64,000 nucleotides of DNA from NCBI RefSeq assembly GCF_018350175.1, contig NC_058368.1, positions 18,044,001-18,108,000 of the forward strand. Direction: 5' to 3'. The notes under the pieces are model-generated. The model saw nothing but the letters and a program-made list of their open reading frames with translations, was not told the DNA's origin and searched no databases. Shown piece after piece: positions 3,773 through 63,863 of this stretch. Source of the DNA: Felis catus. Taxonomy: Eukaryota. Numbering within the stretch: position 1 is the stretch's first letter; each line of letters opens with the position of its first letter. The position numbers were made by a program, and so were the translations under genes.

Positions 3773-3864
3773 GTTCGAATTGAACAAGTAATAGTTGCTG
3801 AACCTGGGGCAGTTTTGTTATATAAAATTTCTAACCTCCTCAAATTTTACCATCATACAATCAG
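3773..3864 (+). CDS. COG6: COG6 exon 12, 92 nt, [30 protein letters not shown](S)
   Basis: ttttcacag| acceptor, CAG|gtaagt donor; phase 0 in, phase 2 out. Confidence 0.96.
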
Positions 3865-9806: not shown

Positions 9807-9924
9807 TGGCATTGTTGGAAATAGTGCAACTACATTATTGACTACCATTGAAGAAATGCATTTGCTAAGCAAAAAAATATTCTTCAATAGCTTGAGTCTT
9901 CATGCAAGTAAATTAATGGACAAG
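9807..9924 (+). CDS. COG6: COG6 exon 13, 118 nt, (S)[39 protein letters not shown]
   Basis: gcttttag| acceptor, AAG|gtatgt donor; lies within ORF 9778..10008. Confidence 0.96.
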
Positions 9925-12699: not shown

Positions 12700-13760
12700 C
12701 AACAAAACAAAATGGTAAAAGGAAAGATGGAATTAAATTTCTGTGATAAATTAGGAAACAGGAAAAATTGATTTTTTGAGAAGATCCAACAAAATTGACA
12801 ACCTTCTGGCAATTCTTTAACCAAAAAAAAAAAAAAAGAATTAAAAATTAGAATATCAGAAATTTGAGATATTAACCAGAGATACGAACTAAAATTTATT
12901 AGAAAATACCATATTAAAATGTAACAGTCTTATGCTAAAATAATCTGAAAATCTGAATACAAAGAGTGATTTTAAGACAATATAAGTGGACAAAAGGGTA
13001 AAAAAAAGAAGTGGAAAACTTGAATACACCTGGCGAGGGAAGAAAAATTATTGGAGAACATGCTGCTAGGCTTAGTTGAGGTTATACAGATAGCTTCATC
13101 CACACCTATGAACAGATAATTATCCAGAACACAGGAAAATATAGAAGAATTCCCAGTTCAATTTAGGTGTTGTAACACTGACATAAAAGCCTTTAGAAGA
13201 CAGTACAAAAGTGAAAATCACAAATCAGTCACTTTAAATTAAAAAAAAAAAAAAGTTAAAAATACCATTAAGCCAAATCCAGCATTATGTTCAAAACAAG
13301 TATGGGTTATTTGCAGAAATACGAGAATGTTTAAGTGTTAGAAAATACATTAAATATCTCAGTGTTAAATAAGAAAATTTTATATTATCATGATAGTTGA
13401 TCAGGTTGTTGGAGGAAAAATCTTACTAAATAAGAAAGCAGAAATTCTTCTTTAACCATGTAAAGATAAGTAAAACTAACAGCCCACATTATGATGAACA
13501 CAGAAGCACTACCAATATACTCTATGTAAGTCAAGAAAGAATAAGACAAGAATGCTTGCCAATAACATTTTTAAATAATAGAAAGGCCAGATTAAAAAGT
13601 GAGAGGTATAAGTATTTCAAAGGAGGAGACATTAGATTATTTCTAGATGCTATGATTGTCTACTTCAAAAGCCCAAGAAAATTAATTGAAAAGTTTTAGA
13701 ACTAGTAAATGTATTTAGGAAGTTATTTGGTGACCAGATCAATACACAAAAATAGTTTTC
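12700..13760 (+). mobile_element. Very old L1 ORF2 fragment
   Basis: A-rich decayed ORF2-like blocks (aacaaaattgacaacc, ctagatgctatgattgtctac). Confidence 0.6.
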
Positions 13761-14816
13761 AGGGAAGGTGGTGAAGTTGGAGGCACCTGTAATCTGTCTC
13801 TGCACCAAGACAAAAATTGCACTGACAGAATCCGTCTCCCTCTCAAAATAAATAAATAAAACTTAAAGTGCTCAAAGAAGAAAAAAAATCAAGATGGTCT
13901 TTCAAAAGTGAGGGCATTCTTTCACAAAAATGAGACCTTCCCAAATAAAATAAAGCTGAGGGAGCTCATTACTACTAGCCCTGCCCTGTAAGAAATGCTC
14001 AAGGGAGCCCTGCAGGGTGAGATGTAAGGACAGTAGACAGTAACTCCAAGCTTTATGAAGAAATAAACATCTCGATAAAGGTAAACACACAAGCAACTAA
14101 AAGTCAGTATTGTAACAAATGTTTGAACTCCACTTTTTGTTACATGATTTAAGAGCCTAAAATCTTCTAAAAAAAATATTTGCTGTAAAAGCTAGCATTG
14201 TTGTGACTTTGGTTTGTAATTCCATTTTTTGTCTACATGATGCATTTAAGAGGCTAATGCATTTAAAATAATTATTAGTTTGTATTTCGTGACATCAGCT
14301 ACTGACAGGGTGGAGGTGGAGCTGTAAAGGAGCAGAGGTTGTTTTGTAGGTTATTGACGTTAGCTGGTATAAAGTCAAATTAGAGTGTTACATAATTTTC
14401 AGACCTTAAACGTAATCCCCATGGGAAACACAAAGAAAATAGCTAAATATACACAAAAAAAATGAGAATTGAAATGTTGCATTCACTATAAAAACCAACT
14501 TAAAAAAAGACAATAATGCAGGAAATGAGACAACAAAAGACTATAAGGTATATAGAAAATAATAGCAAAATGGTAGAAGTAAGTTTCTTCTTACCAGTAT
14601 TTACCTTGAATATAAACAGATTAAATTCTCCAATAAACAAATAAGAGATTGGCAGAATGGATAAAACTACAAGATGCAACTATATGCTGTCTACAGGAGA
14701 CTTACTTTACATATAAAGACACATAATGAAAGTGAAAGGGAGGAGAAAGGTAATCCATGTAAATACTAACCAGAAGAGAGCAAACGTGGTGATAACATCA
14801 GACAAAATAAACTTTA

Positions 14817-16006
14817 TTATTATTTTTTTTAATATATGAAATTTATTGTCAAATTGGTTTCCATACAATACCCAGTGCTCATCCCAAAAGATGCCCTCTT
14901 CAATGCCCATCGCCTACCCTCCCCTCTCTCCCACCCCCCATCAACCCTCAGTTTGTTCTCAGTTTTTAAGAGTCTCTTATGCTTTGGCTCTCTCCCACTC
15001 TAACCTCTTTTTTTTTTCTTTCCTTCCCCTCCCCTATAGGTTTCTGTTAAGTTTCTCAGGATCCACATAAGGGTGAAAACATATGGTATCTTTCTCTGTA
15101 TGGCTTATTTCACTTAGCATCACACTCTCCAGTTCCATCCACGTTGCTACAAAGGGCCATATTTCATTCTTTCTCATTGCCACGTAGTACTTTATTGTGT
15201 ACATAAACCACAATTTCTTTATCCATTCGTCAGTTGATGGACATTTAGGCTCTTTCCACAATTTGGCTATTGTTGAGAGTGCTGCTATAAACATTGGGGT
15301 ACAAGTGCCCCTATGTATCAGTACTCCTGTATCCCTTGGGTAAATTCCTAGCAGTGCTATTGCTGGGTCATAGGGTAGGTCTATTTTTAATTTTTTGAGG
15401 AACCTCCACACTGTTTTCCAGAGTGGCCGCACCAGTTTGCATTCCCACCAACAGTGCAAGAGGGTTCCCGTTTCTCCACATCCTCTCCAGCATCTATAGT
15501 CTCCTGATTTGTTCATTTTGGCCACTCTGACTGGCCTGAGGTGATATCTGAGTGTGGTTTTGATTTGTATTTCCCTGATGAGGAGTGACGTTGAGCATCT
15601 TTTCATGTGCCTGTTGGCCATCTGGATGTCTTCTTTAGAGAAGTGTCTATTCATGTTTTCTGCCCATTTCTTCACTGGGTTATTTGTTTTTCGGGTGTGG
15701 AGTTTGGTGAGCTCTTTATAGATTTTGGATACTAGCCCTTTGTCCGATATGTCATTTGCAAATACCTTTTCCCATTCCGTTGGTTGCCTTTTAGTTTTGT
15801 TGATTGTTTCCTTTGCAGTGCAGAAGCTTTTTATCTTCATGAGGTCCCAATAGTTCATTTTTGCTTTTAATTGCCTTGCCTTTGGGGATGTGTCAAGTAA
15901 GAAGTTGCTGCGGCTGAGGTCAGAGAGGTTTTTTTTCCTGCTTTCTCCTCTAGGGTTCTGATGGTTTCCTGTCTCACATTCAGGTCCTTTATCCATTTTG
16001 AGTTTA
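14817..16006 (-). mobile_element. 5'-truncated young L1 (1.19 kb) with TSD AGACAAAATAAACTTTA (14800-14816 / 16007-16023)
   Basis: Near-identical to the 3' end of the full-length L1; ORF 15034..15996 is the ORF2 C-terminus; inserted in an older L1. Confidence 0.95.
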
Positions 16007-16808: not shown

Positions 16809-17463
16809 GAAAGATGTCAAATCATCAACTAACTTTACACCTTCAGGAATGAGAAAAGAATACACTGAACTCAAATCTAACACAAAGGAAATAATAAAGA
16901 CTAGAGCAGTCTTTATTCTAATCTAAATGGAGATTAGAAAAACAAAGAGAAAATCAGTCAAACCAAAATATGGTTCTTTGAATATGTCAACGAAATTGAC
17001 AAACCGTTACCTAGTCTAGACTAAGAAAAAAGAGAAGATTCATATTACTAAAATTAGAAATGAAAGTGAGACATTACTACCAATTGTATGGAAATAAAAA
17101 GGACTTTAAGAGAGTATTAATGAACAACGATATGCCAACAAATTGGATAATCAGATAAAATGGACAAATTCCTAGAAATACAAAAGCTACCAGGACTCAT
17201 GAAGAATTAGATTGAATAGACCTATAACTAGTAGAGAGATCAAATCAGTAATCAAAAATCAATTGCACACCCACTCTGCAAACAAAAGCCCTAGATCTCA
17301 TGGCTTCACTGGTGAGTTCTACTAAACATTTAAAGAACTACTATCAGTCCTTCTCAAACTTTTTTTAAAAATTGAAGAGGAGGGAACACTTCTTAACTCA
17401 TTCCATGAGGCCAGTCTTACCCTGAAACCAAAGCCAGAAAAAGACACAAGAAAAGGAACTAGA

Positions 17464-17680
17464 GGGGCGCCTGGGTGGCTCAGTCGGTTGAGTGTCCGAC
17501 TTTGGCTCAGGTCATGATCTCATGGCTTGTGAGTTCGAGCCCCACGTCGGGCTCTGTGCTGATAGCTCAGAGCCTGGAGCCTGCTTCCGATTCTGTGTCT
17601 CCCTCTCTCTCTGCCCCTAACCCACTCGCTGTCTCTGTCTCTCTCAAAAATAAACATTAAAAAAAAATTAAAAAAAAAAG
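17464..17680 (+). mobile_element. SINEC
   Basis: ggggcgcctgggtggctcagtcgg; gaactaga repeated on both flanks. Confidence 0.9.
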
Positions 17681-18088
17681 AACTAGAGACCAATATCTCT
17701 CATGAAACCTATGCAAAAATCATCAGCATAATACTAATGAACCAAATTAGGAAGCATATTAAAAAGATTTTACACCATGATCAAGTGAGATTTATTCCTG
17801 GAATGCATATGAAAGTCACACAATATAGTTATCATTTAACAAATGGAAAAAAAAAACATGGTCATCTCAATTGATGCAGAAAAAGCATTTGACAAAATTC
17901 AGCACCCTATCATGATAAAAAACACTCAACAAACTAAGAATTGAAGGAAACTATCTCAACATAATACAAAACTTCCAGCAAACATCATGCTCTTTTCCTA
18001 AAGGAAAAGACTAAAATATTTTCCTTTAAGATCAGGAACAAGGCAAGGATGCCCACTTTCACCACTTCTGTTAAAAATAGTGTTGAAG

Positions 18089-18297
18089 TGGGGTGCCTGG
18101 GTGGCTCAGTCAGTTAAGTGTCTGACTTCAGCTCAGGTCATGATGTCACTGCTCGTGAGCTCCATGTTGGGCTCTGTGTTGACAACTCAGAGCCTGGAGC
18201 CCACTTTGGATTCTGTGTCTCCCTCCCTTTCTGCCTCTCCCCTACTCGTGCTCTGCCTCTCTCTCTCAAAAATAAATAAACATTAAAACAAACAAAC
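18089..18297 (+). mobile_element. SINEC
   Basis: Head and tail present; degenerate TSD aaaatagt.ttg.aagt. Confidence 0.9.
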
Positions 18298-19319
18298 AAA
18301 ATAGTCTTGCAAGTTCTAGCCATAGCAGTTAGTTAAGAAAGAGAAACAAAAGTTACCCAAATTGGAAAGGCAAAAGTAAAATTGTCTTTGTAGATGATGT
18401 GATCTTATATGTAGAAAACCCTAAAGATTCTAGCAAAAAAATGAACAAACAAAAAAAAAAAACTAGTGAGTGACTTCAGCAAAGTAGCAGGGTGTAAAAT
18501 CAATACCAAAAAATCCGTTACATTTCTATACACTAACAATGGAAAGGAAATTATGAAAAAATTCTATTTATAATAGCATTAAAAAGAATTAAATGCTTAG
18601 GAATTAACCAGGGAGATGATAGACTTGTACAATGAAAACTATAAATGTTGCCGAAAGAAATTGAAGAGGACATGAATCAATGGAAAGACATCCCATGTTC
18701 ATAGATTAGAAGACTTTCTATTATTAAGATATCAATTCAAAACAATTATAGATTCAGTATAATTCTTACCAAAATCTCAAGGACATTTTTTTCAAAAATA
18801 GAAAAACCCATTCTATAATTCATGTGGAATCTCACAGGATCCTGCATAGCCAAAACAATCTTGAAAAAGAAGAAAGCTAGAGGATTCACATTTCCTAATT
18901 TCAGAACTTAATACAAAGCAACAGTAATGAAAACAATGTAGTATTAACATAAAGGCAGATACATAGCGCAATGAAATAGAATAGAGAACCCAGGAATAAA
19001 CCCTTGCTTTTATGGTCAAAAGATTTTTGGAAAGGATGCCAAGACCATTCTATGGGGAAAGGACAGTCTTTTTTTAACACGGTGTTGTGAAAACTGGATA
19101 ATCACATGCAAAAAATGAAGTTAGACCCTTATCTAACACCATATACAAAAATTAACTCAAGTAAGATCAAAGACTTAAAGGTAGACCTAGAATTATAAAA
19201 TTCTTAAAATAGGACAAAAGCCTCACAACATTGTCACTATTTGGAACACATAGAATATATGAGGACTTTCAAAACTCAACAACAACAAAATAGTCTGACA
19301 CAAAAATAGGTAAAAGATA

Positions 19320-20185
19320 AATAGCACACATGGAACATTTTCTAGGATAGAAATAAGGTAGGCTACAAAAGAAATCTTAGCAAATTCAGAGACTTAAACT
19401 ATATCAGCTATCTTCCCTGACCACAATGATATGAAACTGAAATCAGTAACGAGGAAAACTGGAAAATTTAACATGGAAATTGAACAACACACTCCTGATC
19501 AACCAAGGGATCAAAGAAGAAATTAAAAGGGAAATAAAAAAGTTTCTTGAGACAAATGAAAATGGAAATACTATATACCAGAAGTAATGGGATACAGCAA
19601 AACCAGTTCTAAGAGGGAAGTTCATAGCAATAAACACTTACGTTAAGAAGCAAGCGAAAGCCCAAGTAACCTTCCTGTACACCTTGGGGAACGATAGAAA
19701 GAACAAACTGAGCCCAAAGTTAACAGAAGGAAAGAGATAATAAAGGTTAGAGCAGAAGTAGATGAAATACAGAACAGGAAAACAATTGGAAGGATTAACT
19801 AAACTAAGAGTTGGTTCTTTGTAAAGATGAACAAAATTGACAAACTATTAGCTAGACTCACCAAGCAAAATAGAAGACCCAAATCAAAACTATAAACAAA
19901 AAAGGAGACATTTCAACTGATTTTTTGGAAGAGTTTGAGAAAGACTGATGTGAATTCTTTAAATGCTTGGTGAAATATAACAGTGAAGCCATCTAGTCCT
20001 GGGCTTTCTTTAAAATTTTTAAACTGATTTCATCTCCTTACTAGCAGTTGGTCTATTCAGATTTTCTGTTTCACCCTAATTCAGTTTTGGCAGGTTGCAT
20101 TCCTTCTAGGTTGTCCAATTTGTTGGTATATAGTTGTACATAGTACCTCTTATGATCCTTTGTGTATTTGTCATATCAGTTGTAG
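19320..20185. mobile_element. Second old L1 ORF2 fragment: plus 19320-19921, its continuation inverted 19922-20185
   Basis: gcacacatggaacattttctaggatag (EN end); reverse complement of 19922-20185 continues ORF2 from caactgat. Confidence 0.75.
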
Positions 20186-23810: not shown

Positions 23811-24023
23811 GGGGCGCCTGGGTGTCTCAGTCGGTTAAACGTCTGACTCTTGGTTTTCAGCTCAGGCCATGATCTCACAATTTGTGAGATCAAGCTGGGC
23901 GTCATTGGGCTCCACCCTGACAGCATGGGGCCTGCTTGGCATTCTCTCTCTCACTCTCCCTCTGCCCTTCCCCTGCTTGTGCACGCTCTGTCCCCAAATA
24001 AATAAACTTTAAAAAAAAAAAAA
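23811..24023 (+). mobile_element. SINEC
   Basis: ggggcgcctgggtgtctcagtcgg head, A tail. Confidence 0.9.
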
Positions 24024-24124
24024 ACATCTACCTATAAAAGGGATGAAAAGTGTCATAATAAACAGTCACAGGAAGTACAACTCTGTTTAGTTTCTAGCGG
24101 TATACATTTTTTAAAAAGAGAGTT

Positions 24125-24415
24125 TCTACATAAGGGAAGGGAAGGAAAAACAATATAAAAACAGGGAGGGCGACAAACCATAAGAGGCTCTTAAATATAG
24201 AGAACAAACCGAGGGTTGCTGGAGGGGTTGTGGGTGGGGGGATGGCTAAATGGACAAGGGGCATTAAGGAAGACACTTGGGATGAGCACTGGGTGTTATA
24301 TGTAGGGGATGAATCACTGGATTCTACTCCTGAAATCATTATTGCACTATATGCTGAGTAACTTGGATGTAAATTAAAAAAAAAAAAAAAGCCAATAAAA
24401 AAAGTTAAAAAAAGA
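24125..24415 (+). mobile_element. Carnivore L1 3'UTR fragment with A-tail
   Basis: gagaacaaaccgagggttgctggagggg...gggatgagcactgggtgtt. Confidence 0.85.
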
Positions 24416-24649
24416 GATGTTCTAATATGTGGAATATGAAATTTTCAGTAGACTAAACGTTTTTAAATGTGAGATTTTTATAGTTCAACTTTATCAATTG
24501 GAAAATGTACATAAAACTTATGTGTTTTTCATAAAGCTCTTTTGTACATTAATTATTAATGGCCATGTTGTTTATGAATTTTGGATACTTTTATAATCCA
24601 TTGTTGATTTTCAGTGCTTACAAAATATAAACAAAAAGATCAAAAGAAC

Positions 24650-25950
24650 TTTCTTTTTAAGTGGCGATGTAACTGACAGTACACAAATCTTAAGTGTATA
24701 GTTAGTTGAATTTTTGTATTTCTGTATGCTCATTTATCTCCACCCAGATCAAGGCATCAAACATTTCCAGCATCTCAGAAAGCTTCTTTATGCCTTTACT
24801 CAGTCCCCCCAAGGCAAACCATTATCTGACTTTTATTTCCTATTTTTGTGTGCTATTCAAATTCACATAAATAGATACATGCTTTTTCCAACTTTTTTGG
24901 ATCTGACTCCTTTCAATTTAACATATCTTTAAGATTCACCCATGTTGTCTGCAGTAGTTATTTTTCAGTTATTGTGTAATAATTCAGTTTTAGAAATGCA
25001 CCACGGTGTATTGATGGACACTGGATTGTTTCCAGTTCTTAGGTACTGTAAATAAGGATCCAGTGAATATTCTTGTACATGTCTTTTGATGGATGTAAGT
25101 TTTCATTTCTCTCGTGTGTATACACAGGAATGGAATGTCTGGGTGATGGGATTGATAATGTTAGTAGATACCACCAGGCATCTTTTAAAGCGTGTGTACC
25201 AGTTTAGTCCACCAGAAACGTGTGAGAATTTCGTTTGTTCCACATCCTCTCCAGTACTTAATAGTGCTGATCTTTTCAGTTTCAGCCATTGTGGAAATTA
25301 TGTGGTGGTATTTCATTTGTGATTTGCACTTTCCTGAAGACTATAAAGATGTTGAACAGTCTTTCATATGTTTATTGGTTGCTGGATATACTCTCTGTGA
25401 AGTGTCTTTTGAAGTCTGTTACCCAGTTTTCTATTGGGTTATCTATTTTTCTTACTGATTTGTAAGATTTTTTTTTTAAATGTGTTCTGGATAAAAGGAA
25501 GCATTACAAATATTTTCTCCCAATTTAACGTGTCTTTTCACTCTCTTAGTGGAGTATTTTGATGAACAGAATTTCTTCACTTTAATTTTGTTCTGTATCC
25601 TGACTTTTATTTATCTAATCTCTTCCTGCCCTTAGGTTATGAAGTTATTCTTACATGTTTTTTTCTAAGAAGCTTGGTTTCTTTAGTTTCCACATTTAGG
25701 TCTTTGATCCATCTCAGATTAATTTTTAACTATGCGATGAGGTAGTGGTCAAGGTTAATTTTTTTTCCCATATGAATATCTAGTACATCAAGCACCATTT
25801 ATTATAAAGGTAATCCTTTCCCACTGAATTGCAGTGGAAACTGTCAGAAATCGCAAGACCATATATGCGTGGATTTGTTTTGTGAATGTTTATTCTCCTC
25901 CCATTGGTTTATTTGTCTGTCCGTTTACCAGTACCACGCTGTCCCGTATA
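24650..25950 (-). mobile_element. Ancient L1 3' region, antisense
   Basis: gattcacccatgttg, ggattgtttccagtt, ccacatcctctccagtactt, agcaccatttatt blocks. Confidence 0.75.
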
Positions 25951-26382
25951 ACACTTAACCATTAGAAATCCATTTCACTTGGATGAAATTAAGTTGCAGT
26001 GATAGGAGGATGTTAATTAGATACTTTTCTACTTTAGAGTTTCTTTCCATTATTTTTACTACATTATTATAAAATTATAGATTTTATTTATCTGACATCT
26101 GCCACAGTTTTCATTTGCTTTTGAAGCATAATTCTGACCCAGGGCTAATCTGGTATGTGTAAAAGCACTTCATAGAAGGTCCGTTTGTTAAATGAAGTGA
26201 GTTCAAGTAGTACTTGTATCATTTGTCATTGGCTCTAACTAAGGCATGAGTTTTGTTTGAATTTTGCAGCTTTTACAGACCTTAATTCAAGGGGATCAAA
26301 AAAGGTTCTCTTCAGCTATCTCCTATTGGTGCATGAAATTTCTGTCACTAGCCTTCTGTATGGCGATTGAAAATGAAATTTT

Positions 26383-28068
26383 TATTTCCCTGATGAGGAG
26401 TGACGTTGAGCATCTTTTCATGTGCTTGTTGGCCATCTGGATGTCTTCTTTAGAGAAGTGTCTATTCATGTTTTCTGCCCATTTCGTCACTGGATTATTT
26501 GTTTTTCGGGTGTGGAGCTTGGTGAGTTCTTTATAGATTTTGGATACTAGCCCTTTGTCCAATATGTCGTTTGCAAATATCTTTTCCCATTCCGTCAGTT
26601 GCCTTTTAGTTTTGTTGATTGTTTCCTTTGCAGTGCAGAAGCTTTTTATCTTCATGAGGTCCCAATAGTTCTTTTTTGCTTTTAATTCCCTTTCCTTTGG
26701 AGATGTGTCAAGTAAAAAATTGCTGCGGCTGAGGTCAGAGAGGTTTTTCCCTGCTTTCCTCTCTAGGGTTTTGATGGTTTCCTGTCTCACGTTCAGGTCC
26801 TTCATCCATTTTTAGTTTATTTTTGTGAATGGTGTAAGAAAGTGGTCTGTTTTCATTCTTCTTCATGTTGCTTTCCAGTTCTCCCAGCACCATTTGTTAA
26901 AGAGACTGTCTTTTTTCCATTGGATATTCTTTCCTGCTTTGTCAAAGATTAGTTGGCCATACTTCTGTGGGTCCAATCCTGGAGTCTCTATTCCATTGGT
27001 CTAAGTGTCTGTTTTTGTGCCAATATCATGCTGTCTTGATTATTACAGCTTTGTAGTAGAGGCTAAAATCTGGGATTGTGAAGCCTCCTGCTTTGGTCTT
27101 CTTCAAAATTACTTTGGCTATTCGGGGTCTTATGTGGTTCCATACAAATTTTAGGATTGCTTGTTCTAGCTTCGAGAAGAATGATGGTGCAACTTTGATT
27201 GGGATTGCATTGAATGTGTAGATAGCTTTGGGTAGTATTGACATTTTAACAATATTTATTCTTCCAATCCATGTGCACGGAATGTTTTTCCATTTCTCTA
27301 TATCTTCTTCAATTTCCTTTATAAGCTTTCTATAGTTGTCAGCATACAGATCTTTTGCATCTTTGGTTAGGTTTATTCCTAGGTGTTTTATGATTCTTGG
27401 TGCAGTTGTGAATGGGATCAATTTCTTTATTTGTCTTTCTGTTGCTTCATTATTAGTGTACAAATCAAAACCACACAGAGATACCACCTCACACCAGTCA
27501 GAGTGGCTAAAATGAACAAATCAGGAGACTATAGATGTTGGAGAGGATGCGGAGAAACAGGAACCCTCTTGCACTGTTGGTGGGAATGCAAACTGGCACA
27601 GCTGCTCTGGAAGCAGTGTGGGGGTTCTCCCCAAAATTAAAGATAGATCTACCCTATGATCCAGCAGTAGCACTGCTAGGAATTTACCCAAGGGATACAG
27701 GAGTGATGATGCATAGGGGCACATGTACTCCAATGTTTATAGCAGCACTTTCAATAATAGCCACATTATGGAAAGAGCCTAAATGTCCATCAACTGATGA
27801 ATGGATAAAGAAATTGTGGTTTATATGCACAATGGAATACTACTTGGCAATGAGAAAGAATGAAATATGGCCTTTTGTAACAACGTGGATGGAACTGGAG
27901 AGTGTTATGCTAAGTGAAATAAATCATACAGAGAAAGACAGATAACATGTTTTCACTCTTATGTGGATCCTGAGAAACTTAACGGAAGACCCTAGGGGAG
28001 GGGAAGGAGGAAAAAAAAAAAGAGAGGGAGGGAGCCAAACCATAAGAGACTCTTAAAAACTGAAAACA
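26383..28068. mobile_element. Young L1 with 5' inversion (twin priming): minus segment 26383-27460, plus segment 27459-28068; 3' end missing
   Basis: ORFs 26323..26805(-), 27026..27487(-) and 27535..27945(+) are ORF2 pieces; both segments break at consensus ...cagggaaata|caaatcaaaacc. Confidence 0.92.
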
Positions 28069-28277
28069 GGGGTGCCTGGGTAGCTCAATCAGTTGAGCGT
28101 CCGTCATGATCTCACGGTTCGTGAGTTCGAGCCCTGTGTCGGGCTCTGTGCTGACAGCTCAGAGACTGGAGCCTGCTTCGGATTCTGTGTCTCCCTCTCT
28201 CTCTGCCCCTCCCCTGATCACGCTTTCTCTCCATCTCTCTCAAAGATAAACATTAAAGAAATTTTTTTTTTAAAAGA
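28069..28277 (+). mobile_element. SINEC, probably chimeric (no direct TSD; left inversion breakpoint)
   Basis: Left flank is young L1 3'UTR, right flank is old L1. Confidence 0.85.
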
Positions 28278-29410
28278 AAGAAATATGGGGAATCCTTCAG
28301 ACTAAAATACAGAGACACTGGACAGTAACTCGAATTCACATGAAGAAATAACACCACTAAAGGTTCTGATATAGGCAAAGAAAGTATTAATGTATTTTCC
28401 ATTTGTAATTCCCTTTTTTCCCCTGATTCAAAAGACAATGGCATGAAGCAATAATTATAATTCTGTGTTAATGAGTCCACAACATAGAAAGATACAATTT
28501 GTAACTATGGTAGTGGAAAGGAAGAGGAGACCTGGTCTACATAAGAGTAAAGCTTTTGTGTGCTATTGAAAGTAAGGTGGCATTAACCTGAAGTATACTG
28601 TTATAAATTAAGATGTTTAATTATAATTCCCAGGACACCACTAAGAAACTAACAAACACCACACACACACTCACACACACATATATGTAAATAAACGGTA
28701 AGGGAATTAAAGGAGCATACTAGAAAATATTAACACAAAAGAAGGCAGTAACAGAGGGACAGAGGAACAAAAACAGTTAAGACATAAGAATAACAAAACA
28801 GCAGACACAAATTCTACTTTATCATCAATTAAACGTGAAAGGATTAAACATGCCGTCCAAAAAGCAGAGACTGGCAGATGGACCTTAAAAAAAAAAAGAT
28901 CCAACTACCCATATGCTATCTTCAAGAAACAAAAGGTTTAGGGGCACCTGGGTGGCTCAGTCAGTTGAGCATCTGACTCTTGATTTCAGCTCAGGTCATG
29001 ATCTCATGGTCTGTGAATTCAAGCCCCACACTGGGCTCTGCTCTGACAGTGCGGAACCTGTTTGGGATTCTCTCCCCCGTCCCTCCCCCCTGCTCCTCCT
29101 CTACTCATGCTGCAGGCGCTTGCTCTCTCTCTCAGAATGCGTGTATAAACATTAAAAAAACAAAACCAGAAAGGTTTAAATACACAAAGGGGTTGAAAGT
29201 GAAAGGATGGGAAATGACAGACTTTGCAAGCAAAAACCAAGAGCTAGAGTAGTTATGCTAATTTCAGATAAAATAAACTTTAAAGACAAACACCACTAGA
29301 AACAAACACATTTTATAACCTTTATTATCAAGAAGACCTGACAATTATAAATGTGTGCATCTAACAATAGAACCACAAAGTACATGAAACCAAGATTGAC
29401 AAAATTAAAT
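28278..29410 (+). mobile_element. Old L1 (ORF1 end to ORF2 start); inverted half of the element at 29749-30830
   Basis: ggacagtaactcgaattcacatgaag post-ORF1 motif; EN-start remnants at 28820-29400. Confidence 0.75.
28941..29165 (+). mobile_element. SINEC
   Basis: Flanked by aaaggttta on both sides. Confidence 0.9.
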
Positions 29411-29660
29411 AAAAAGTATCTCTCATGGAAAATATTTATTTCAAGTTTCATACCTCCTTCAGTTTTGCTTCCTTTTTTCTGTTAAATTCAAACTGAATTA
29501 AGAAAAACTCCAGAATATGAAGCCATCTTTATAAAAGTATTTTCTATTCATTCACCCAATTTAAAAAGATATCCAGAATGTTTTTAAACTGATGGTAATG
29601 ATGGCTAATTAATGTTATTTCTAAATAAAGGAATTTTTATACTTTATTTATACCCTCCCC

Positions 29661-29748
29661 CCCGATGCGGGGCTTCAACTCACAAACCGCAAGATCATGA
29701 CCTGAGCCGAAGTCGGACACTCGACCGACTGAGCCACACAGGCACCCC
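29661..29748 (-). mobile_element. SINEC head only (88 bp), right inversion breakpoint
   Basis: tRNA-like 5' part only; body and tail absent. Confidence 0.85.
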
Positions 29749-30830
29749 AGGATTCCCCATATTTCTTGTGGAACAGGTTTACTGGTGAAGAATCTTTGTT
29801 TTCCTTCATTCTTAAGAGTAGTTTTACTGAGTATAGAATTCTGTCTTGACAGTCTTTCTTGCAGCCCTTGAATATGCTATCCAGTGCCTTCCGGCCTCCA
29901 TGTTTTCTGATGAGAAATCAGCTGTTAATCTTATGAGAATCCTTTGTCATAATCACTTCTCTTACTGCTTCCAGATTCTCTCTTTGTCTTTTGACAGTTT
30001 GTGTGATGTGTCTTAGTGTGAAACTGTGTAAGTTTATTCCTTGTGGAGTTTGTGAGCTTCTTAGATGCTTAGATTAATGTTTTGTTTTAATCACATTTGT
30101 GAAATCTTTGTCATTAGCTCTTCAAATATTTTTTTCTGCGCTCCTCTCTCCTTCTAAGAGAACCACATTGTACTTAATGTTGATGGTGTTCCATAGGTCT
30201 CTGAGGCTTTGTGAATTTTCTTTCATTTGTTTTTCTTTCTGTCCCTCAAACTGGATAATTTTAATTGACCTATCTTCAAGTTCACTGATTACTTATTCTG
30301 CCTACTCAGATGTGCTATCGAATCCCTAGAGTGAATTTTTCATTTTAGTTACTTTCAACTACAAAATTTCTATTCAGTTATTTCTTTTTATCATTTTTAT
30401 TTCTTTGTAAATATTCTCTATTTGATGAGACATTGTTCTCATACTTCCCTTTAGTTCATTAACCTGGTTCCCTTTCTTAAAATCGCCAATTTTGAGGTGC
30501 TGAGTGGCTCAGTTGGTTGGGCATCTGACTCTTGATCTCAGCTTGGGTCATGATCTCACGGTTTGTAGGTTTGAGCCCCACAAGCTTGGGATTCTGTCTC
30601 TCCTTCTCTCTGCCCCTTACCTGCTGTGCTCTCTGTCTCTCTCTCTCTCTCTCAAAATAAATAAATAAACTTTAAAATAAAATACAATAGTCAATTCAGA
30701 TTTTTTGTGTAGTAACTCCAGTGTCCAGGCTTCCTCAGGGGAAGTTCCCATTGACTATTTTTTCTGTGCATGGACCATGTATTTTTGTTTCTTTGCATGT
30801 CTTATAATTTTTTGGTTTTGTTGTTTTATG
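29749..30830 (-). mobile_element. Old L1 ORF1 region, antisense
   Basis: gagtatagaattct and tttctgatgagaaatcagctgttaatctt, typical antisense old-L1 ORF1 blocks. Confidence 0.75.
30495..30685 (+). mobile_element. SINEC with internal deletion
   Basis: ggtgctgagtggctcagttgg head, (CT)n, AATA tail. Confidence 0.85.
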
Positions 30831-31866
30831 AAAGAGGGAAGATTTTCAGAGGTCCATACTTTGATATTCCTGCTGCTGTCACTTATGTATTAACTTTTCT
30901 ATATAAAACATTCTTCATATAAATCCAGATATTTAAAAATTCTTATACTTTTATGTCTGACACAAGGTTATAGTCTCTTACATAGACTTCTGAGTATCAT
31001 ATTTTTTAGATAAGATCTGACTATGTTATTATAAGTACTCAACAAAAATTCACCAGCACATCTTCTTGGATATCATGATGCCAGCAAGTAGAGAGAATGA
31101 ACTTGGCATACCTTCCAGTTTTAGTACCCAATAGTTTATATGCAACAATCCCACTAATCCTTAAAGAATCCCTCTGAAATTCTGAGAAGTTAAAGAACTT
31201 ACCCAGGACCACACAACTAGTGATTGGTAATCTAAAGTGTGAAACTAATCTTTAACTTCGGTGCTAAAGATTTCAGTGGCAGTGTTACACCGTGTAGAAT
31301 AGTGGGCACTGTGTTTCTGTGAAGTGTGTAGCCCATAGACTGATCTGAATATCACCTGTGATGCTTATTGAAGGATGGATTCCTAGTCCCCAAACCTATG
31401 CATATTGAGCCACATTTCTGAGATTTGGGCCTGGAGGTGGATGATGATTCTCAACTATATTATCGTTGGGGGAGTGTTGGTTTCTAGATTGCCTTTTTCT
31501 AATGACTTGGGCTAAAAACAAAACAAAACAAAACAAAACCCAAAACAGTAGGCCATTTCAAATCTGCATAAAAATATAATTCTACATCAAAGACTACTGA
31601 GTTTTCTTGTAACTTTCGAATTTTAGAAGTATAAATTCTTTACTTCTTATTATGAGAAGAATATATTAATTCTGTGATAATACAACAAAAACCTTTGGTG
31701 TCACTTTATGCTTATTAGTATCAGCTATGGATCAATTCTAGATTTTGTAATGCTCGCCAAATCTTTACATCTTTTACATGTATTGTTTTACTGTGAATTG
31801 TATTTATTTATACATTAAAATTTAGTGGAAAATGTAAGCAGTGGATGAAGCCACCCTTTATTTTAG

Positions 31867-31998
31867 GTTGAACTCCCACCACCTGATCTTGGACCAAGTT
31901 CTGCATTAAATCAGACACTCGCATTGTTGCGTGAAGTTTTGGCATCTCACGATTCTTCAGTTGTACCGTTAGATGCCCGTCAAGCTGACTTTGTGCAA
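31867..31998 (+). CDS. COG6: COG6 exon 14, 132 nt, [44 protein letters not shown]
   Basis: ttttag| acceptor, CAA|gtatgt donor; overlaps ORF 31924..32145. Confidence 0.96.
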
Positions 31999-32322
31999 GT
32001 ATGTTGTAAATCATTTTTAATGATTATTTATTGCTCCTCTGTTATACATTCTGTTGAAATTCTGGCATTTTATAACCCGTGCATTGTAACAGTCCCTGTC
32101 ATTGATTTTTTCTTTCACGTATTAGATCAGCTCTCTTTAATTTAAAAAGTACTTTATTCCGTGATGCCCATTGTAAAAAACATTATGATTACTATACCAT
32201 TTAATCTTACAAGTTGCTCCCCTTCCGATTAGTTTGTCATTCTTTCTGAAGTACTGTTAACCCAGGCCTGTATCACTGATTGGGGAATAAAAAATAGATT
32301 TGATTTTATTTTTCACTTACAG

Positions 32323-32490
32323 GTTTTATCGTGTGTCTTAGATCCTCTCCTCCAGATGTGTACCGTATCTGCCAGCAATTTAGGCACAGCTGACATGGCC
32401 ACTTTCATGGTCAATTCACTCTATATGATGAAGACAACACTAGCTCTGTTTGAGTTCACTGACAGACGACTAGAAATGCTACAGTTTCAG
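32323..32490 (+). CDS. COG6: COG6 exon 15, 168 nt, [56 protein letters not shown]
   Basis: cacttacag| acceptor, CAG|gtaagc donor; overlaps ORF 32356..32544. Confidence 0.96.
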
Positions 32491-32615
32491 GTAAGCTTTG
32501 TCATAAGATGCCTGCTCACTGTGACGGAGCCTTTTTTCATCTGATCTCAGTTACTGGCTTTAGTCCAATTTCGGTGACCTAATTTCAATAAATTCTTGGG
32601 TATAGTCTGATGGAA

Positions 32616-32618
<3 letters not shown>

Positions 32619-32650
<32 letters not shown>
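32619..32650. repeat. (CA)16 microsatellite ~130 bp after exon 15
   Basis: Direct read. Confidence 0.95.
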
Positions 32651-32651
<1 letters not shown>

Positions 32652-33290
32652 CGCACACACATACTTGGTGTTTCAGTTTTGTTTTGGGAAGCCAGAATAT
32701 GTAATGAGTATGATATTTTATTCAAACCATAGTATGTGATGATAGAATGAAGCTTCTCTTATTGATTGGAACAGCAACTCTGTATGCAGATTTCACTTGC
32801 TGAACTGTGAATAATATGCTATATTTTCCAAGCTTGCTAGCTAGTGCAGAAGGTGTTACAGAGGACAGATACATTTTTATCTATGTGTAAACCAGTGTTA
32901 GGCAAAACATTACAATTTGTTATACCAATGACTCTAGTCCTATAAACCAAATAGTATCATTTAAGAGTTTGTGAAGTGGCTAAGCCGTTTATAAAATTCA
33001 CCAGATACTTGGCTTCTGATTTTGAAATAGTGACTTTTGGTGTCTATAATGTTTTGAAGAAAAAATGCTGACTGTTCTGTGTTATTACAAGTATATAAGT
33101 AATATGGCAGTGGCTATAGTAAAAATTTGTTTGTGAACTTTGGGGGTTTTCTAAAGCATGAATTTTGATAAGTCTAAACTTGTGATATTTTCTAATTTCT
33201 AATTTCTTCTTTTAAAAGAAATATAATGAGGTATGATTAATTTTCCTTTCTTAAATAACTGTTTTTTTGTGGAATACAATTCTTTTTTTA

Positions 33291-35557: not shown

Positions 35558-35665
35558 ATTGAAGCACATTTGGACACACTTATCAATGAGCAAGCTTCTT
35601 ATGTTTTAACTAGAGCCGGCTTGAGTTATATCTATAACACCGTGCAGCAACATAAACCTGAGCAG
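35558..35665 (+). CDS. COG6: COG6 exon 16, 108 nt, [36 protein letters not shown]
   Basis: ttcttttag| acceptor, CAG|gtaagc donor; open frame. Confidence 0.96.
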
Positions 35666-41624: not shown

Positions 41625-41830
41625 TTTCAACGTTTATTTATTTTTAGGACAGAGAGAGACAGAGCATGAACGGGGGAGGGGCAGAGAGAGAGGGAGACAC
41701 AGAATGGGAAACAGGCTCCAGGCTCTGAGCCATCAGCCCAGAGCCTGACGTGGGGCTCGAACTCACGGACCGCGAGATCGTGACCTGGCTGAAGTCGGAC
41801 GCTTAACCGACTGCGCCACCCAGGCGCCCC
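41586..41830 (-). mobile_element. Very young SINEC_Fc with TSD AAACATACTGTGATTCTTTT (41566-41585 / 41831-41850)
   Basis: CpGs intact, uninterrupted T run of about 30 nt, perfect TSD. Confidence 0.96.
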
Positions 41831-42740: not shown

Positions 42741-43831
42741 TTAGCCAGGAAACAAAGTTGTATAGAAAGTGGAGAAAAGAGAATGAAAATAATTTTAAGG
42801 AATTCTTCCTTCTTTTCTTCCTTGGGATGAATTAGAGATGTTCTTTTTTCAGTGTCAAACTCCAATATTCACCTTTCAGTGATACAAATATTAGACATTG
42901 GAATACAGAAGATACAGTTAAACATATATATATATATATACATATATATATATGTATATATATATGCATATGTAAAATATTCTCAGTGTCTTTTCTTGAT
43001 GATTCAGAATTATTTCTGAATGTTATTATATCAGATGTGATTTGAGAACTCTTATTCAGGAATCTTCCTTGATTTGACATACTAAAAAAATAATGTAATA
43101 ATGTAAAAAACAATGCCTTTATAGGAAATATTTCCTCTTTACTTAAAGAGGTATACAGAATAATTTTTTTCTTCTTTACCTCCTTTTAAGCCACCTGTAT
43201 TAACTATCAGGAATACCTGTTCTCAATAAAAATAAAGTAAGTTTTGGGGGAAAATAGTTCCACCAGGAAAAGAACAGCTACTGGAAACCTGTAAGCTGAA
43301 ACATAACTGGAGCTTGCACAATGCTTTAGAGACTCGAGAAAGCCCAAGCCTTCAAAGAGAGGTTAATCTAGTCCTACATAAAGCCTACCTTATACTCAGA
43401 AAAGCTTAAAAACAAAGTATGAAGTATCATGCTGATTTTTAACTAAACCAACTGCCTTCCTGAACAAAGCTTAGCACTCCTAAGGATGACAATAAATACA
43501 GTCAACCGTATAGCATGTGTAATGCAATATTACTTAGAAGAAGTAGTAGGAAAATATGAACCAAAACTAGGAAAAAATCTGTCAATAGAAACAGACAAAT
43601 GACAGTTTATAAAACTAGCAGTTAAGTTCCTTATAAGCAGCTAGTTACAGTGTGTTCAAGGACTTAAAGGAAAACATTATTATACTGAGAGAAGAAATAG
43701 GGAATTTTAGAGCTGAGAATTCTAGACCTGAAAAGTGTAACATCTAAAGTGAAAAATTGACTGACTGGGTTTAACTCTCAGTTGGACACCCCAGAGAGAA
43801 AGATCAGTCAACTTGAAAAGAGTACAGTAGA

Positions 43832-44762
43832 GGGGGGAAGCGGCAAGATGGCGGCTTAGGAGGACGCTGGGCTCACCGCGCGTCCTGCTGATCACTTAGA
43901 TTCCACCTACACCTGCCTAAATAACCCAGAAAACCGCCAGAGGATTAGCAGAACGGAGTCGCCGGAGCCAAACGCAGACGAGAGGCCCACGGAAGAGGGT
44001 AGGAAGGGCGGCGTGGCGGTGCGCGCTCCACGGACTGGCGGGAGGGAGCCGGGGCGGAGGGGCGGCTCGCCGGCCAAGCAGAGCCCCCGAGTCTGGCTGG
44101 CAAAAGCGGAGGGGCCTGACGGACTGTGTTCCCACAACAAGCGCGACTTAGCGTCTGGGAGGTCATAAGTTAACAGCTCTGCTCGGAAAGCGGGAAGGCT
44201 GGAGGACAAAGGGAGGGAGAGCTGCTGAGCCCCCTGACGACAGAGCTCAGCTTGGTGGGGAACAAAGGCGCTCGCCAGCGCCATCTCCCCCGCCCATCCC
44301 CCAGCCAAAATCCCAAAGAGAACCAGTTCCTGCCAGGGAACTTGCTCGCTCCGCGCAAACACCCAACTCTGTGCTTCTGCGGAGCCAAACCTCTGGCAGC
44401 GGATCTGACTCCCTCCCGCTGCCACAGGGCCCCTCCTGAAGAGGATCACCTAAGGAGAAGCGATCTAAGCCTGCCCCTCCTACCCCCGTGCACCTTGCCT
44501 ACCCACCCCAGCTAATACGCCAGATCCCCAGCATCACAAGCCTGGCAGTGTGCAAGTAGCCCAGACGGGCCACACCACCCCACAGTGAATCCCGCCCCTA
44601 GGAGAGGGGAAGAGAAGGCACACACCAGTCTGACTGTGGCCCCAGCGGTGGGCTGGGGGCAGACATCAGGTCTGACTGCGGCCCCGCCCACCAACTCCAG
44701 TTATACACCACAACACAGGGGAAGTGCCCTGCAGGTCCTCACCACGCCAGGGACTATCCAAA
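43832..44762 (+). promoter_or_regulatory. L1 5'UTR internal promoter, CpG-rich, YY1-type motif CAAGATGGCGG at 43844-43854
   Basis: Only clearly CpG-dense stretch in the window; YY1 core near the 5' end, as known for L1 promoters. Confidence 0.8.
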
Positions 44763-45656
44763 ATGACCAAGCGGAAGAATTCCCCTCAGAAGAATCTCCA
44801 GGAAATAACAACAGCTAATGAACTGATCAAAAAGGATTTAAATAATTTAACAGAAAGTGAATTTAGAATAATAGTCATAAAATTAATCGCTGGGCTTGAA
44901 AACAGTATACAGGACAGCAGAGAATCTCTTGCTACAGAGATCAAGGGACTAAGGAACAGTCACGAGGAGCTGAAAAACGCTTTAAACGAAATGCATAACA
45001 AAATGGAAACCACCACAGCTCGGCTTGAAGAGGCAGAGGAGAGAATAGGTGAACTAGAGGATAAAGTTATGGAAAAAGAGGAAGCTGAGAAAAAGAGAGA
45101 TAAAAAAATCCAGGAGTATGAGGGGAAAATTAGAGAACTAAGTGATACACTAAAAAGAAATAATATACGCATAATTGGTATCCCAGAGGAGGAAGAGAGA
45201 GGGAAAGGTGCTGAAGGGGTACTTGAAGAAATAATAGCTGAGAACTTCCCTGAACTGGGGAAGGAAAAAGGCATTGAAATCCAAGAGGCACAGAGAACTC
45301 CCTTCAGACGTAACTTGAATCGATCTTCTGCACGACATATCATAGTGAAACTGGCAAAATACAAGGATAAAGAGAAAATTCTGAAAGCAGCAAGGGGTAA
45401 ACGTGCCCTCACATATAAAGGGAGACCTATAAGACTCGTGACTGATCTCTCTTTTGAAACTTGGCAGGCCAGAAAGAATTGGCAGGAGATTTTCAGGGTG
45501 CTAGACAGAAAAAATATGCAGCCGAGAATCCTTTACCCAGCAAGTCTGTCATTTAGAATAGAAGGAGAGATAAAGGTTTTCCCAAACAAACAAAAACTGA
45601 AGGAATTTGTCACCACTAAACCAGCCCTACAAGAGATCCTAAGGGGGACCCTGTGA
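44763..45656 (+). CDS. L1 ORF1p, 297 aa from ATG 44763 (coiled coil, RRM, CTD)
   Basis: MTKRKNSP start; heptad-rich region; [22 protein letters not shown] motifs; the track ORF starts at an upstream GTG. Confidence 0.96.
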
Positions 45657-45706
45657 GACAAAGTCCCAGAGACATCACTACAAGCATAAATCATACAGAC
45701 ATCACA

Positions 45707-48700
45707 ATGACTCTCAACCCGTATCTTTCTATAATAACACTGAATGTAAATGGATTAAATGCACCAACCAAAAGACATAGGGTATCAGAATGGATAAAAA
45801 AACAAGACCCATCTATTTGCTGTCTACAAGAGACTCATTTTAGACCTGAGGATACCTTTAGATTGAGAGTGAGGGGATGGAGAACTATTTATCATGCGAC
45901 TGGAAGCCAAAAGAAAGCTGGAGTAGCCATACTTACATCAGACAAACTAGACTTTAAATTAAAGGCTGTAACAAGAGATGAAGAAGGACATTATATAATA
46001 GTTACAGGGTCTATCCATCAGGAAGAGCTAACAATTATAAATGTCTATGCGCCGAATACCGGAGCCCCCAAATATATAAAACAATTACTCATAAACATAA
46101 GCAATCTTATTGATAAGAATGTGGTAATTGCAGGGGACTTTAACACCCCACTTACAGAAATGGACAGATCATCTAGACACACGATCAATAAAGAAACAAG
46201 GGCCCTGAATGAGACATTGGATCAGATGGACTTGACAGATATATTTAGAACGCTGCATCCCAAAGCAACAGAATATACTTTCTTCTCGAGTGCACATGGA
46301 ACATTCTCCAAGATAGATCACATACTGGGTCACAAAACAGCCCTTCATAAGTTTACAAGAATTGAAATTATACCATGCATACTTTCAGACCACAATGCTA
46401 TGAAGCTTGAAATCAACCACAGGAAAAAGTCTGGAAAACCTCCAAAGGCATGGAGGTTAAAGAACACCCTACTAACGAATGAGTGGGTCAACCAGGCAAT
46501 TAGAGAAGAAATTAAAAAATATATGGAAACAAACGAAAATGAAAATACAACAATCCAAACGCTTTGGGACGCAGCGAAGGCAGTCCTGAGAGGAAAATAC
46601 ATTGCAATCCAGGCCTATCTCAAGAAACAAGAAAAATCCCAAATACAAAATCTAACAGCACACCTAAAGGAACTAGAAGCAGAACAGCAAAGGCAGCCTA
46701 AACCCAGCAGAAGAAGAGAAATAATAAAGATCAGAGCAGAAATAAACAATATAGAATCTAAAAAAACTGTAGAGCAGATCAACGAAACCAAGAGTTGGTT
46801 TTTTGAAAAAATAAACAAAATTGACAAACCTCTAGCCAGGCTTCTCAAAAAGAAAAGAGAAATGACCCAAATAGATAAAATCATGAATGAAAATGGAATT
46901 ATTACAACCAATCCCTCAGAGATACAAACAATTATCAGGGAATACTATGAAAAATTATATGCCAACAAACTGGACAACCTGGAAGAAATGGACAAATTCC
47001 TGAACACCCACACTCTTCCAAAACTCAATCAGGAGGAAATAGAAAGCTTGAACAGACCCATAACCAGTGAAGAAATTGAATCGGTTATCAAAAATCTCCC
47101 AACAAATAAGAGTCCAGGACCAGATGGCTTCCCAGGGGAGTTCTACCAGACGTTTAAAGCAGAGATAATACCTATCCTTCTCAAGCTATTCCAAGAAATA
47201 GAAAGGGAAGGAAAACTTCCAGACTCATTCTATGAAGCCAGTATTACTTTGATTCCTAAACCTGACAGAGACCCAGTAAAAAAAGAGAACTACAGGCCAA
47301 TATCCCTGATGAATATGGATGCAAAAATTCTCAATAAGATACTAGCAAATCGAATTCAACGGCATATAAAAAGAATTCTTCACCATGATCAAGTGGGATT
47401 CATTCCTGGGATGCAGGGCTGGTTCAACATTCGCAAATCAATCAACGTGATACATCACATTAACAAAAAAAAAGAGAAGAACCATATGATCCTGTCAATC
47501 GATGCAGAAAAGGCCTTTGACAAAATCCAGCACCCTTTCTTAATAAAAACCCTTGAGAAAGTCGGGATAGAAGGAACATACTTAAAGATCATAAAAGCCA
47601 TCTATGAAAAGCCCACAGCTAACATCATCCTCAACGGGGAAAAACTGAGAGCTTTTTCCCTGAGATCAGGAACACGACAAGGATGCCCACTCTCACCGCT
47701 GCTGTTTAACATAGTGCTGGAAGTTCTAGCATCAGCAATCAGACAACAAAAGGAAATCAAAGGCATCAAAATTGGCAAAGACGAAGTCAAGCTTTCGCTT
47801 TTTGCAGATGACATGATATTATACATGGAAAATCCGATAGACTCCACCAAAAGTCTACTAGAACTGATACAGGAATTCAGCAAAGTTGCAGGATACAAAA
47901 TCAATGTACAGAAATCAGTTGCATTCTTATACACTAACAATGAAGCAACAGAAAGACAAATAAAGAAACTGATCCCATTCACAATTGCACCAAGAAGCAT
48001 AAAATACCTAGGAATAAATCTAACCAAAGATGTAAAGGATCTGTATGCTGAAAACTATAGAAAGCTTATGAAGGAAATTGAAGAAGATTTAAAGAAATGG
48101 AAAGACATTCCCTGCTCATGGATTGGAAAAATAAATATTGTCAAAATGTCAATACTACCCAAAGCTATCTACACATTCAATGCAATCCCAATCAAAATTG
48201 CACCAGCATTCTTCTCGAAACTAGAACAAGCAATCCTAAAATTCATATGGAACCACAAAAGGCCCCGAATAGCCAAAGGAATTTTGAAGAAGAAGACCAA
48301 AGCAGGAGGCATCACAATCCCAGACTTTAGCCTCTACTACAAAGCTGTCATCATCAAGACAGCATGGTATTGGCACAGAAACAGACACATAGACCAATGG
48401 AATAGAATAGAAACCCCAGAACTAGACCCACAAACGTATGGCCAACTCATCTTTGACAAAGCAGGAAAGAACATCCAATGGAAAAAAGACAGCCTCTTTA
48501 ACAAATGGTGCTGGGAGAACTGGACAGCAACATGCAGAAGGTTGAAACTAGACCACTTTCTCACACCATTCACAAAAATAAACTCAAAATGGATAAAGGA
48601 CCTAAATGTGAGACAGGAAACCATCAAAACCTTAGAGGAGAAAGCAGGAAAAGACCTCTCTGACCTCAGCCGTAGCAATCTCTTACTCGACACATCCCCA

Positions 48701-49531
48701 AAGGCAAGGGAATTAAAAGCAAAAGTGAATTACTGGGACCTTATGAAGATAAAAAGCTTCTGCACAGCAAAGGAAACAACCAACAAAACTAAAAGGCAAC
48801 CAACGGAATGGGAAAAGATATTTGCAAATGACATATCGGACAAAGGGCTAGTATCCAAAATCTATAAAGAGCTCACCAAACTCCACACCCGAAAAACAAA
48901 TAACCCAGTGAAGAAATGGGCAGAAAACATGAATAGACACTTCTCTAAAGAAGACATCCGGATGGCCAACAGGCACATGAAAAGATGTTCAGCGTCGCTC
49001 CTTATCAGGGAAATACAAATCAAAACCACACTCAGGTATCACCTCACGCCAGTCAGAGTGGCCAAAATGAACAAATCAGGAGACTCTAGATGCTGGAGAG
49101 GATGTGGAGAAACGGGAACCCTCTTGCACTGTTGGTGGGAATGCAAATTGGTGCAGCCGCTCTGGAAAGCAGTGTGGAGGTTCCTCAGAAAATTAAAAAT
49201 AGACCTACCCTATGACCCAGCAATAGCACTGCTAGGAATTTATCCAAGGGATACAGGAGTACTGATGCATAGGGCCACTTGTACCCCAATGTTCATAGCA
49301 GCACTCTCAACAATAGCCAAATTATGGAAAGAGCCTAAATGTCCATCAACTGATGAATGGATAAAGAAATTGTGGTTTATATACACAATGGAATATTACG
49401 TGGCAATGAGAAAAAATGAAATATGGCCTTTTGTAGCAACGTGGATGGAACTGGAGAGTGTGATGCTAAGTGAAATAAGCCATACAGAGAAAGACAGATA
49501 CCATATGGTTTCACTCTTATGTGGACCCTGA
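45707..49531 (+). CDS. L1 ORF2p, 1274 aa from ATG 45707 (APE-like endonuclease, reverse transcriptase, Cys-rich C-terminus)
   Basis: [25 protein letters not shown] (EN); [12 protein letters not shown] (RT); CWRGC...HCWWEC; no stops or frameshifts. Confidence 0.98.
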
Positions 49532-63860: not shown

Positions 63861-63863
63861 TTT

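Follow-up and report, generated by a model that had tools for sequence, protein, structure and literature searches.

Sequence evidence for a probable inversion between two opposite CanSINEs in a COG6 intron of the cat, with DNA lost at one junction

Results

The window, i.e., the whole 64,000-nucleotide stretch of Felis catus DNA analysed here (contig NC_058368.1), contains part of COG6. Consecutive parts of the Pfam profile COG6_C were matched by exons at positions 3773-3862, 31867-31998, 32323-32490, and 35558-35665. The exon at 31867-31998 (plus strand; COG6_C positions 234-273, E 3.5e-4) is the next one downstream of the locus described below, and exons 32323-32490 and 35558-35665 carry on the profile after it. 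Upstream, a probable exon of 118 nt at 9807-9924 on the plus strand has canonical splice sites and an open frame; it gave no Pfam match of its own at E ≤ 0.1, and it bridges COG6_C positions 193 to 234 between the flanking exons. Thus, the profile matches and this candidate exon place the locus within a 21.9-kb COG6 intron, which we take to be intron 13 by human exon numbering. The right junction lies 2.1 kb from the next COG6 exon and the inverted block contains no exon; therefore, an effect of the inversion on COG6 is unlikely. Separately, a COG6 search of metagenome contigs gave one locus from 367 pattern matches, aligned at three exons only. On this contig of 2544 nt, the three COG6 exons keep their order, are separated by short introns, and show 69-75% DNA identity; it evidently represents host DNA, from a distant vertebrate.

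The left side of the locus is occupied by an L1 with a 5′ inversion of the twin-priming type. Its inverted part (26378-27463, minus strand) is 91.3% identical to 47927-49020 in reverse, its 3′ part (27459-28068, plus strand) is 88.6% identical to 49014-49634, and the two parts overlap briefly at 27459-27463. The reference for these comparisons is an intact L1 in the same window, which runs on from 49634 to 49770; those last 136 nt before the poly(A) end are missing to the left of the short interspersed element (SINE) that starts at 28069. L1 3′ UTR had been noted there in the preliminary description, and it indeed matches the intact copy as far as 49634. The same description called this L1 young; it is present on the left as stated, but at only 88.6 to 91.3% identity to the intact copy it sets just a loose lower date. 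For its 15-nt candidate target-site duplication (TSD; 26369-26383), positions 28069-31000 contain no partner with fewer than 4 mismatches. A 10-nt version of the candidate TSD finds one-mismatch matches at 29195 and 30338, a length indistinguishable from chance.

The intact L1 itself (43832-49770, plus strand) is full length, lies in sense to COG6 inside an old L1 ORF1, and is flanked by a 17-nt TSD (43815-43831 and 49771-49787). Both its ORF1 (297 aa, 44763-45653) and ORF2 (1263 aa, 45707-49495) are open. This copy appears to be very recent and is possibly polymorphic.

The SINE at 28069-28277 (plus strand) was delimited by aligning it with 24 further SINEs from the window. It has no direct TSD, the longest exact match being 5 nt, as had been claimed earlier, while several other SINEs of the window gave exact TSDs of 14 to 20 nt by the same test. 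The earlier account was thus right about its position and TSD, but it omitted a 13-nt deletion at 28102/28103, which shows 1-nt microhomology and is absent from the other 14 aligned rows. Immediately upstream, 28055-28068 (plus strand) carries a TT/AAAA endonuclease site motif and is a candidate 5′ TSD. Within 28069-31000, the best partner found for it differs at 3 of 14 positions and stands at 30369, which is outside the block.

Directly 3′ of the tail of this SINE, positions 28278-28296 are the exact reverse complement of 29749-29767 (19/19), with 1452 nt between the arms. The right 19-mer abuts the head of a second SINE, which lies on the minus strand and lacks its tail; both the exact match and the two placements bear out what had been proposed for this pair. 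Among the 25 longest inverted pairs listed, out of 90 in 24000-33000, the 19-mer is the sole pair at 100%. When 27500-30500 was simulated 300 times with an order-3 Markov model, position being left unconstrained, a single simulation gave an exact inverted match of at least 19 nt. We read the two arms as the TSD of a single SINE, with the tail-side copy at 28278-28296 (plus strand) and the head-side copy at 29749-29767 (minus strand).

The right SINE head occupies 88 nt (29661-29748, minus strand), starting at 29748 and stopping at SINE nt 88 in a C7 run. This run is shared with the flank, the SINE contributing three C, and may possibly represent a microhomology junction. The two heads agree at 61 of 75 aligned positions (~81%). 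Since they are distinct and each stands at a plausible insertion junction, the locus holds two separate SINE insertions, hereafter A (head at 28069) and B (head at 29748). The left SINE would accordingly be a chimera with the head of A and the tail of B, as judged from its flanks and not from internal diagnostic positions. Differences outside CpG between the heads (4/27 before the 13-nt gap and 2/29 after it) do not locate the crossover. Two further ideas were dropped. The G-rich sequence beyond the B head was rejected as a collapsed L1 3′ UTR, since it scored no better than 56 to 77% of shuffles, and a duplication of SINE nt 48-88 in both copies was not supported, with differences at 2/29 non-CpG and 6/12 CpG-prone sites.

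An assembly artefact, i.e., a contig flipped between the two SINEs, has to be weighed here, because both junctions lie within repeats and Lee et al. excluded a locus of this kind as misassembled (PMC2603318, in its accessible text). The stretch shared by the SINEs is nevertheless just 75 aligned nt at 81%, and the window is free of N. A mis-join would be expected to leave the two SINEs whole, and likewise the L1 3′ end; a SINE-to-unique junction at nt 88 and a loss of about 0.3 kb would not be expected from it. We therefore consider an artefact very unlikely.

The orientation of the block was read from an old L1 in which it lies. Typing of stop-to-stop old-L1 fragments by Pfam and PDB proved too weak: an L1 family was found in 1 of 17 fragments (E 0.028, below the cut-off), two others gave weak matches to unrelated families, and a PDB match to ORF1p reached E 0.16. 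Other L1s of the window were used as references instead, namely the intact copy at 43832-49770 and old copies near 13300-14830, 49780-51300, and 63000-63863. With these, tiles matched on the minus strand at 25100-26049 (5/6), on the plus strand at 28250-29499, and on the minus strand at 29750-30549 (5/5). Flipping the block back thus yields an old L1 that is all on the minus strand and in gene order. The corresponding pieces are a C-terminal part of ORF2 at 25026-25954 (minus strand, outside the inversion; tblastn with the intact in-window ORF2, E 5e-16 and 2e-7), the ORF1 end, spacer, and ORF2 start with the endonuclease at 28297-29410 (plus strand; ordered matches to 13990-14816, 45629-46157, and 50629-51044), and non-inverted ORF1 at 29768-30480 (minus strand; tblastn to in-window ORF1 residues 42-267, E 9e-6). 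ORF1 had earlier been said to run on the minus strand from ~30830 to 29749. This is confirmed from about 30550 downward and not confirmed beyond, as tiles from 30650 to 31299 gave no L1 ORF1 match. The stretch 25950-26378 offered no homology usable for orientation.

The continuation of the old L1 across the break that had been noted earlier, from minus-strand ORF1 onto the plus strand at 28297, is likewise found in the in-window alignments. On these references, the pieces 30480 to 29768 on the minus strand and then 28278 to 29420 on the plus strand follow L1 order, and an alignment to 13863-14155 crosses the 19-mer, passing from one piece into the other. Shuffling the left part 300 times reached its score once. 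Flipped-back order scored higher than the present order against all three L1 references (256 vs. 143, 243 vs. 58, and 184 vs. 168). With the intact young L1 as reference the gain was slight: 11 of 300 shuffles of the continuation reached it (fraction 0.037). Coincidence of the 19-mer with two separate old L1 insertions might be entertained, as opposite-orientation L1 fragments are common in the window. Yet 19 nt is rarely reached in simulation even when position is free, and the two L1 pieces join at the 19-mer itself, with L1 positions that follow directly on each other, which leaves chance a negligible probability.

Inside the block, two tiles also matched on the minus strand, 28550-28749 (37 AT-rich nt) and 29300-29499 (56 vs. 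a shuffle maximum of 46), and the piece 28480-28640 has its flipped match at z 5.3. The minus-strand matches are short or contain many gaps, and we read them as AT-rich noise, because plus-strand matches of similar score lie in L1 order and the minus match in 29410-29660 was not repeated. The AT-rich sequence at 29411-29660 is presumed to have been inverted with the block; it showed no convincing L1 homology in 12 tests (2 of them at a shuffle fraction of 0.007) or against the intact L1. The block also carries an older-type SINE as a passenger (28941-29169, plus strand), which has its own exact 9-nt direct TSD and a longer head insert.

A different history would have the old L1 originally on the plus strand and A and B as direct repeats, with an inverted copy of ORF1, TSD, and B head placed on the right and a SINE-SINE deletion then removing the original. 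The left junction taken alone, with A head, B tail, and loss of the 3′ flank of A, is indeed what a deletion between direct repeats would leave. Such a history calls for one more duplication and for a third breakpoint, located beyond 30550, and the old ORF2 part to the left of the locus is on the minus strand, as a simple inversion predicts; it thus seems scarcely probable. The left and right old-L1 pieces are assumed here to be one element.

If 25026-25954 and 28297-29410 belong to one element, it lacks roughly 2.3 kb of ORF2, from the endonuclease to about residue 910 in the reference frame, and has unassigned sequence there instead. Elsewhere in the window, a middle-aged L1 ORF2 fragment (16888-19884, minus strand; 67-70% to the intact copy) is broken by two SINEs. 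Its piece 19327-19884 matches 46293-46872; it shares the strand of 16888-19186 but is out of sequence with that part and overlaps it, and may be rearranged or a second copy.

Discussion

The arrangement is best explained by a real intronic inversion between two pre-existing CanSINEs in opposite orientation, with DNA lost at the right junction, a reading that we regard as highly probable. The plus-strand SINE at 28069-28277 and the minus-strand SINE head at 29661-29748 bracket the block, in agreement with the recombination between oppositely oriented SINEs first suggested for it. A flip of roughly 28100-29660 had been proposed; by the in-window L1s at least 28278-29410 is inverted, while an exact left breakpoint at ~28100 was not borne out. 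The 13-nt gap at 28102/28103 is only a candidate for the crossover site and may be unrelated to the event. The inversion postdates the L1 at 26378-28068, as had been proposed, and this order follows from the sequence.

In the sequence of events that we envisage, the old L1 would first have lain wholly on the minus strand, and the younger, twin-primed L1 would then have inserted to its left. SINE A would have entered the 3′ UTR of the younger L1 on the plus strand, and SINE B the end of the old L1 ORF1 on the minus strand, creating the 19-bp TSD. Lying about 2 kb apart and ~81% alike, A and B would have paired and the intervening DNA would have been reversed, so that the A head became joined to the B tail at the left junction. 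At the right junction, the B head, stopped at nt 88, would have been joined to internal sequence at a short G/C run.

A clean crossover leaves two whole SINEs and two swapped TSDs. Here, just one of the two expected swapped pairs survives, that of B, and the absence of a partner for the candidate TSD of A is consistent with deletion. A deletion at the right junction had been anticipated, and one SINE tail, the 3′ end of the younger L1, and a TSD are missing there. The losses would comprise one SINE tail, the second TSD of A, and the terminal 136 nt of the younger L1 together with its TSD. Summed over a SINE tail (which measures 134 nt in the left copy), the 14 nt of the A TSD, the 136 nt of L1, and the L1 TSD, the total loss would be at least ~0.3 kb.

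How inversion and deletion were combined is a finer question. We would give an even chance to a single step of template switching or break repair with one homeologous and one microhomology junction, in which a homeologous switch from A to B, together with a return into B through microhomology at its nt 88, would account for both the inversion and the deletion. It is favored over the two-step alternative of a clean crossover and a later, independent deletion, which we hold to be possible at a distinctly lower probability.

The flip could alternatively have occurred during the insertion of B itself, its nascent cDNA recombining with the resident SINE A. The B cDNA, fixed to the 28278 side, would anneal to A, and the other cut end would copy the 88-nt head and join the nearby G-run; in a variant, two SINEs inserting concurrently would have swapped partners. 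Such a course would leave the same kind of inverted TSD as recombination of a resident pair, and the two copies are still identical at 19 of 19 positions. Furthermore, the accessible text of two reports, one on tumours (bioRxiv 2024.08.27.596794) and the other on reporter assays (PMC13526784), describes TSDs split between junctions ("heteroduplications") as well as reciprocal inversions that arise from concurrent L1 insertions. On the other hand, a coincidence in time as well as in place would be required. According to the available part of the latter study, mismatches between cDNAs inhibit such recombination, and A and B differ by ~19% today. Germline catalogues have recombination of resident pairs as the common route. 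We thus judge inversion during insertion to be quite unlikely; if true, the locus would be a germline fossil of the retrotransposition-coupled inversion that those accounts describe solely for L1, in tumours and cell lines. The likeness lies in a TSD split between two retroelement-bridged junctions. In contrast, those events concern somatic or experimental L1, extend up to megabases, and form during insertion, whereas two diverged SINEs, a kilobase block, and a germline genome are involved here.

The preferred reading, recombination of the resident pair A and B, makes the locus an ordinary SINE-pair inversion with deletion that is probably real, and likely a carnivore example of the class, of modest importance. 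The younger L1 is 9 to 11% diverged from the intact copy, so the inversion may have preceded the radiation of the felids and is not necessarily polymorphic, although this reasoning is not a dating. If confined to one felid lineage, the inversion would be a near homoplasy-free marker. More generally, swapped inverted TSDs together with broken collinearity of an old L1 can reveal small inversions in one genome without an outgroup, and a swapped-TSD approach could be run genome-wide, counting such inversions in carnivores.

In the literature searched, supplements and subscription papers being outside its scope, we found no report of this locus or felid catalogue of SINE inversions. One paper sets inversions aside in its accessible part (PMC13320814). 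A preprint on dog SINEs (10.1101/2020.10.27.358119), as far as its available text goes, finds inverted pairs to be depleted only at distances up to about 100 bp, and so is not relevant to a pair 2 kb apart. As to the elements themselves, the right head lacks the longer head insert that bears the subfamily I motif of CanSINEs, as well as the A-box T>G change and the 1-nt gap of the copy at 41830. It thus resembles subtype IIA of subfamily II (Walters-Conte et al. 2014, PMC4084570), which fits an origin on the felid line within about 35 My; the call rests on motifs in the accessible text of that paper and concerns the right copy, the left SINE having lost that stretch. The SINE heads look like feliform subfamily II, which is reported there from Felidae and Prionodontidae.

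Complex Alu-mediated inversions (Balachandran et al. 2022, PMC9675761) resemble the cat locus in size (about 1-1.6 kb), in pair similarity (~81%), and in carrying a breakpoint deletion and short microhomology. The lesions here are the deletion on the right and, on the left, the 13-nt gap with 1-nt microhomology, which may be unrelated. The loss in the cat, at least ~0.3 kb, is somewhat larger than their 38-251 bp. These complex inversions, mediated by transposable elements (TEMR), are attributed in that study to MMBIR or serial replication slippage.

The closest counterpart is the class that Lee et al. (2008, PMC2603318) defined as RRMI, including Alu-RMI, with 49 loci of median 1452 bp and deletions in 12 of 49; the ancestral state was inferred there from unmatched TSDs, according to its accessible text. 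The cat locus differs in involving tRNA-derived carnivore SINEs (~210 nt) and not Alu, in retaining a single swapped TSD, and in being deduced from one sequence alone, without an outgroup. It shares with these loci same-family SINEs in opposite orientation at both breakpoints, reversal of the intervening sequence (28297-29410 by the in-window L1 references), and a swapped or unmatched TSD as the diagnostic, here that of B. It is further alike in a size at the published median, in deletion of part of an element and of internal sequence, and in its genic location. The class of inversion and its size have been published before, as have a deletion that goes with it and the use of TSDs as a diagnostic (PMC2603318, as far as its text is accessible; PMC9675761), and the cat intron closely follows this known pattern.
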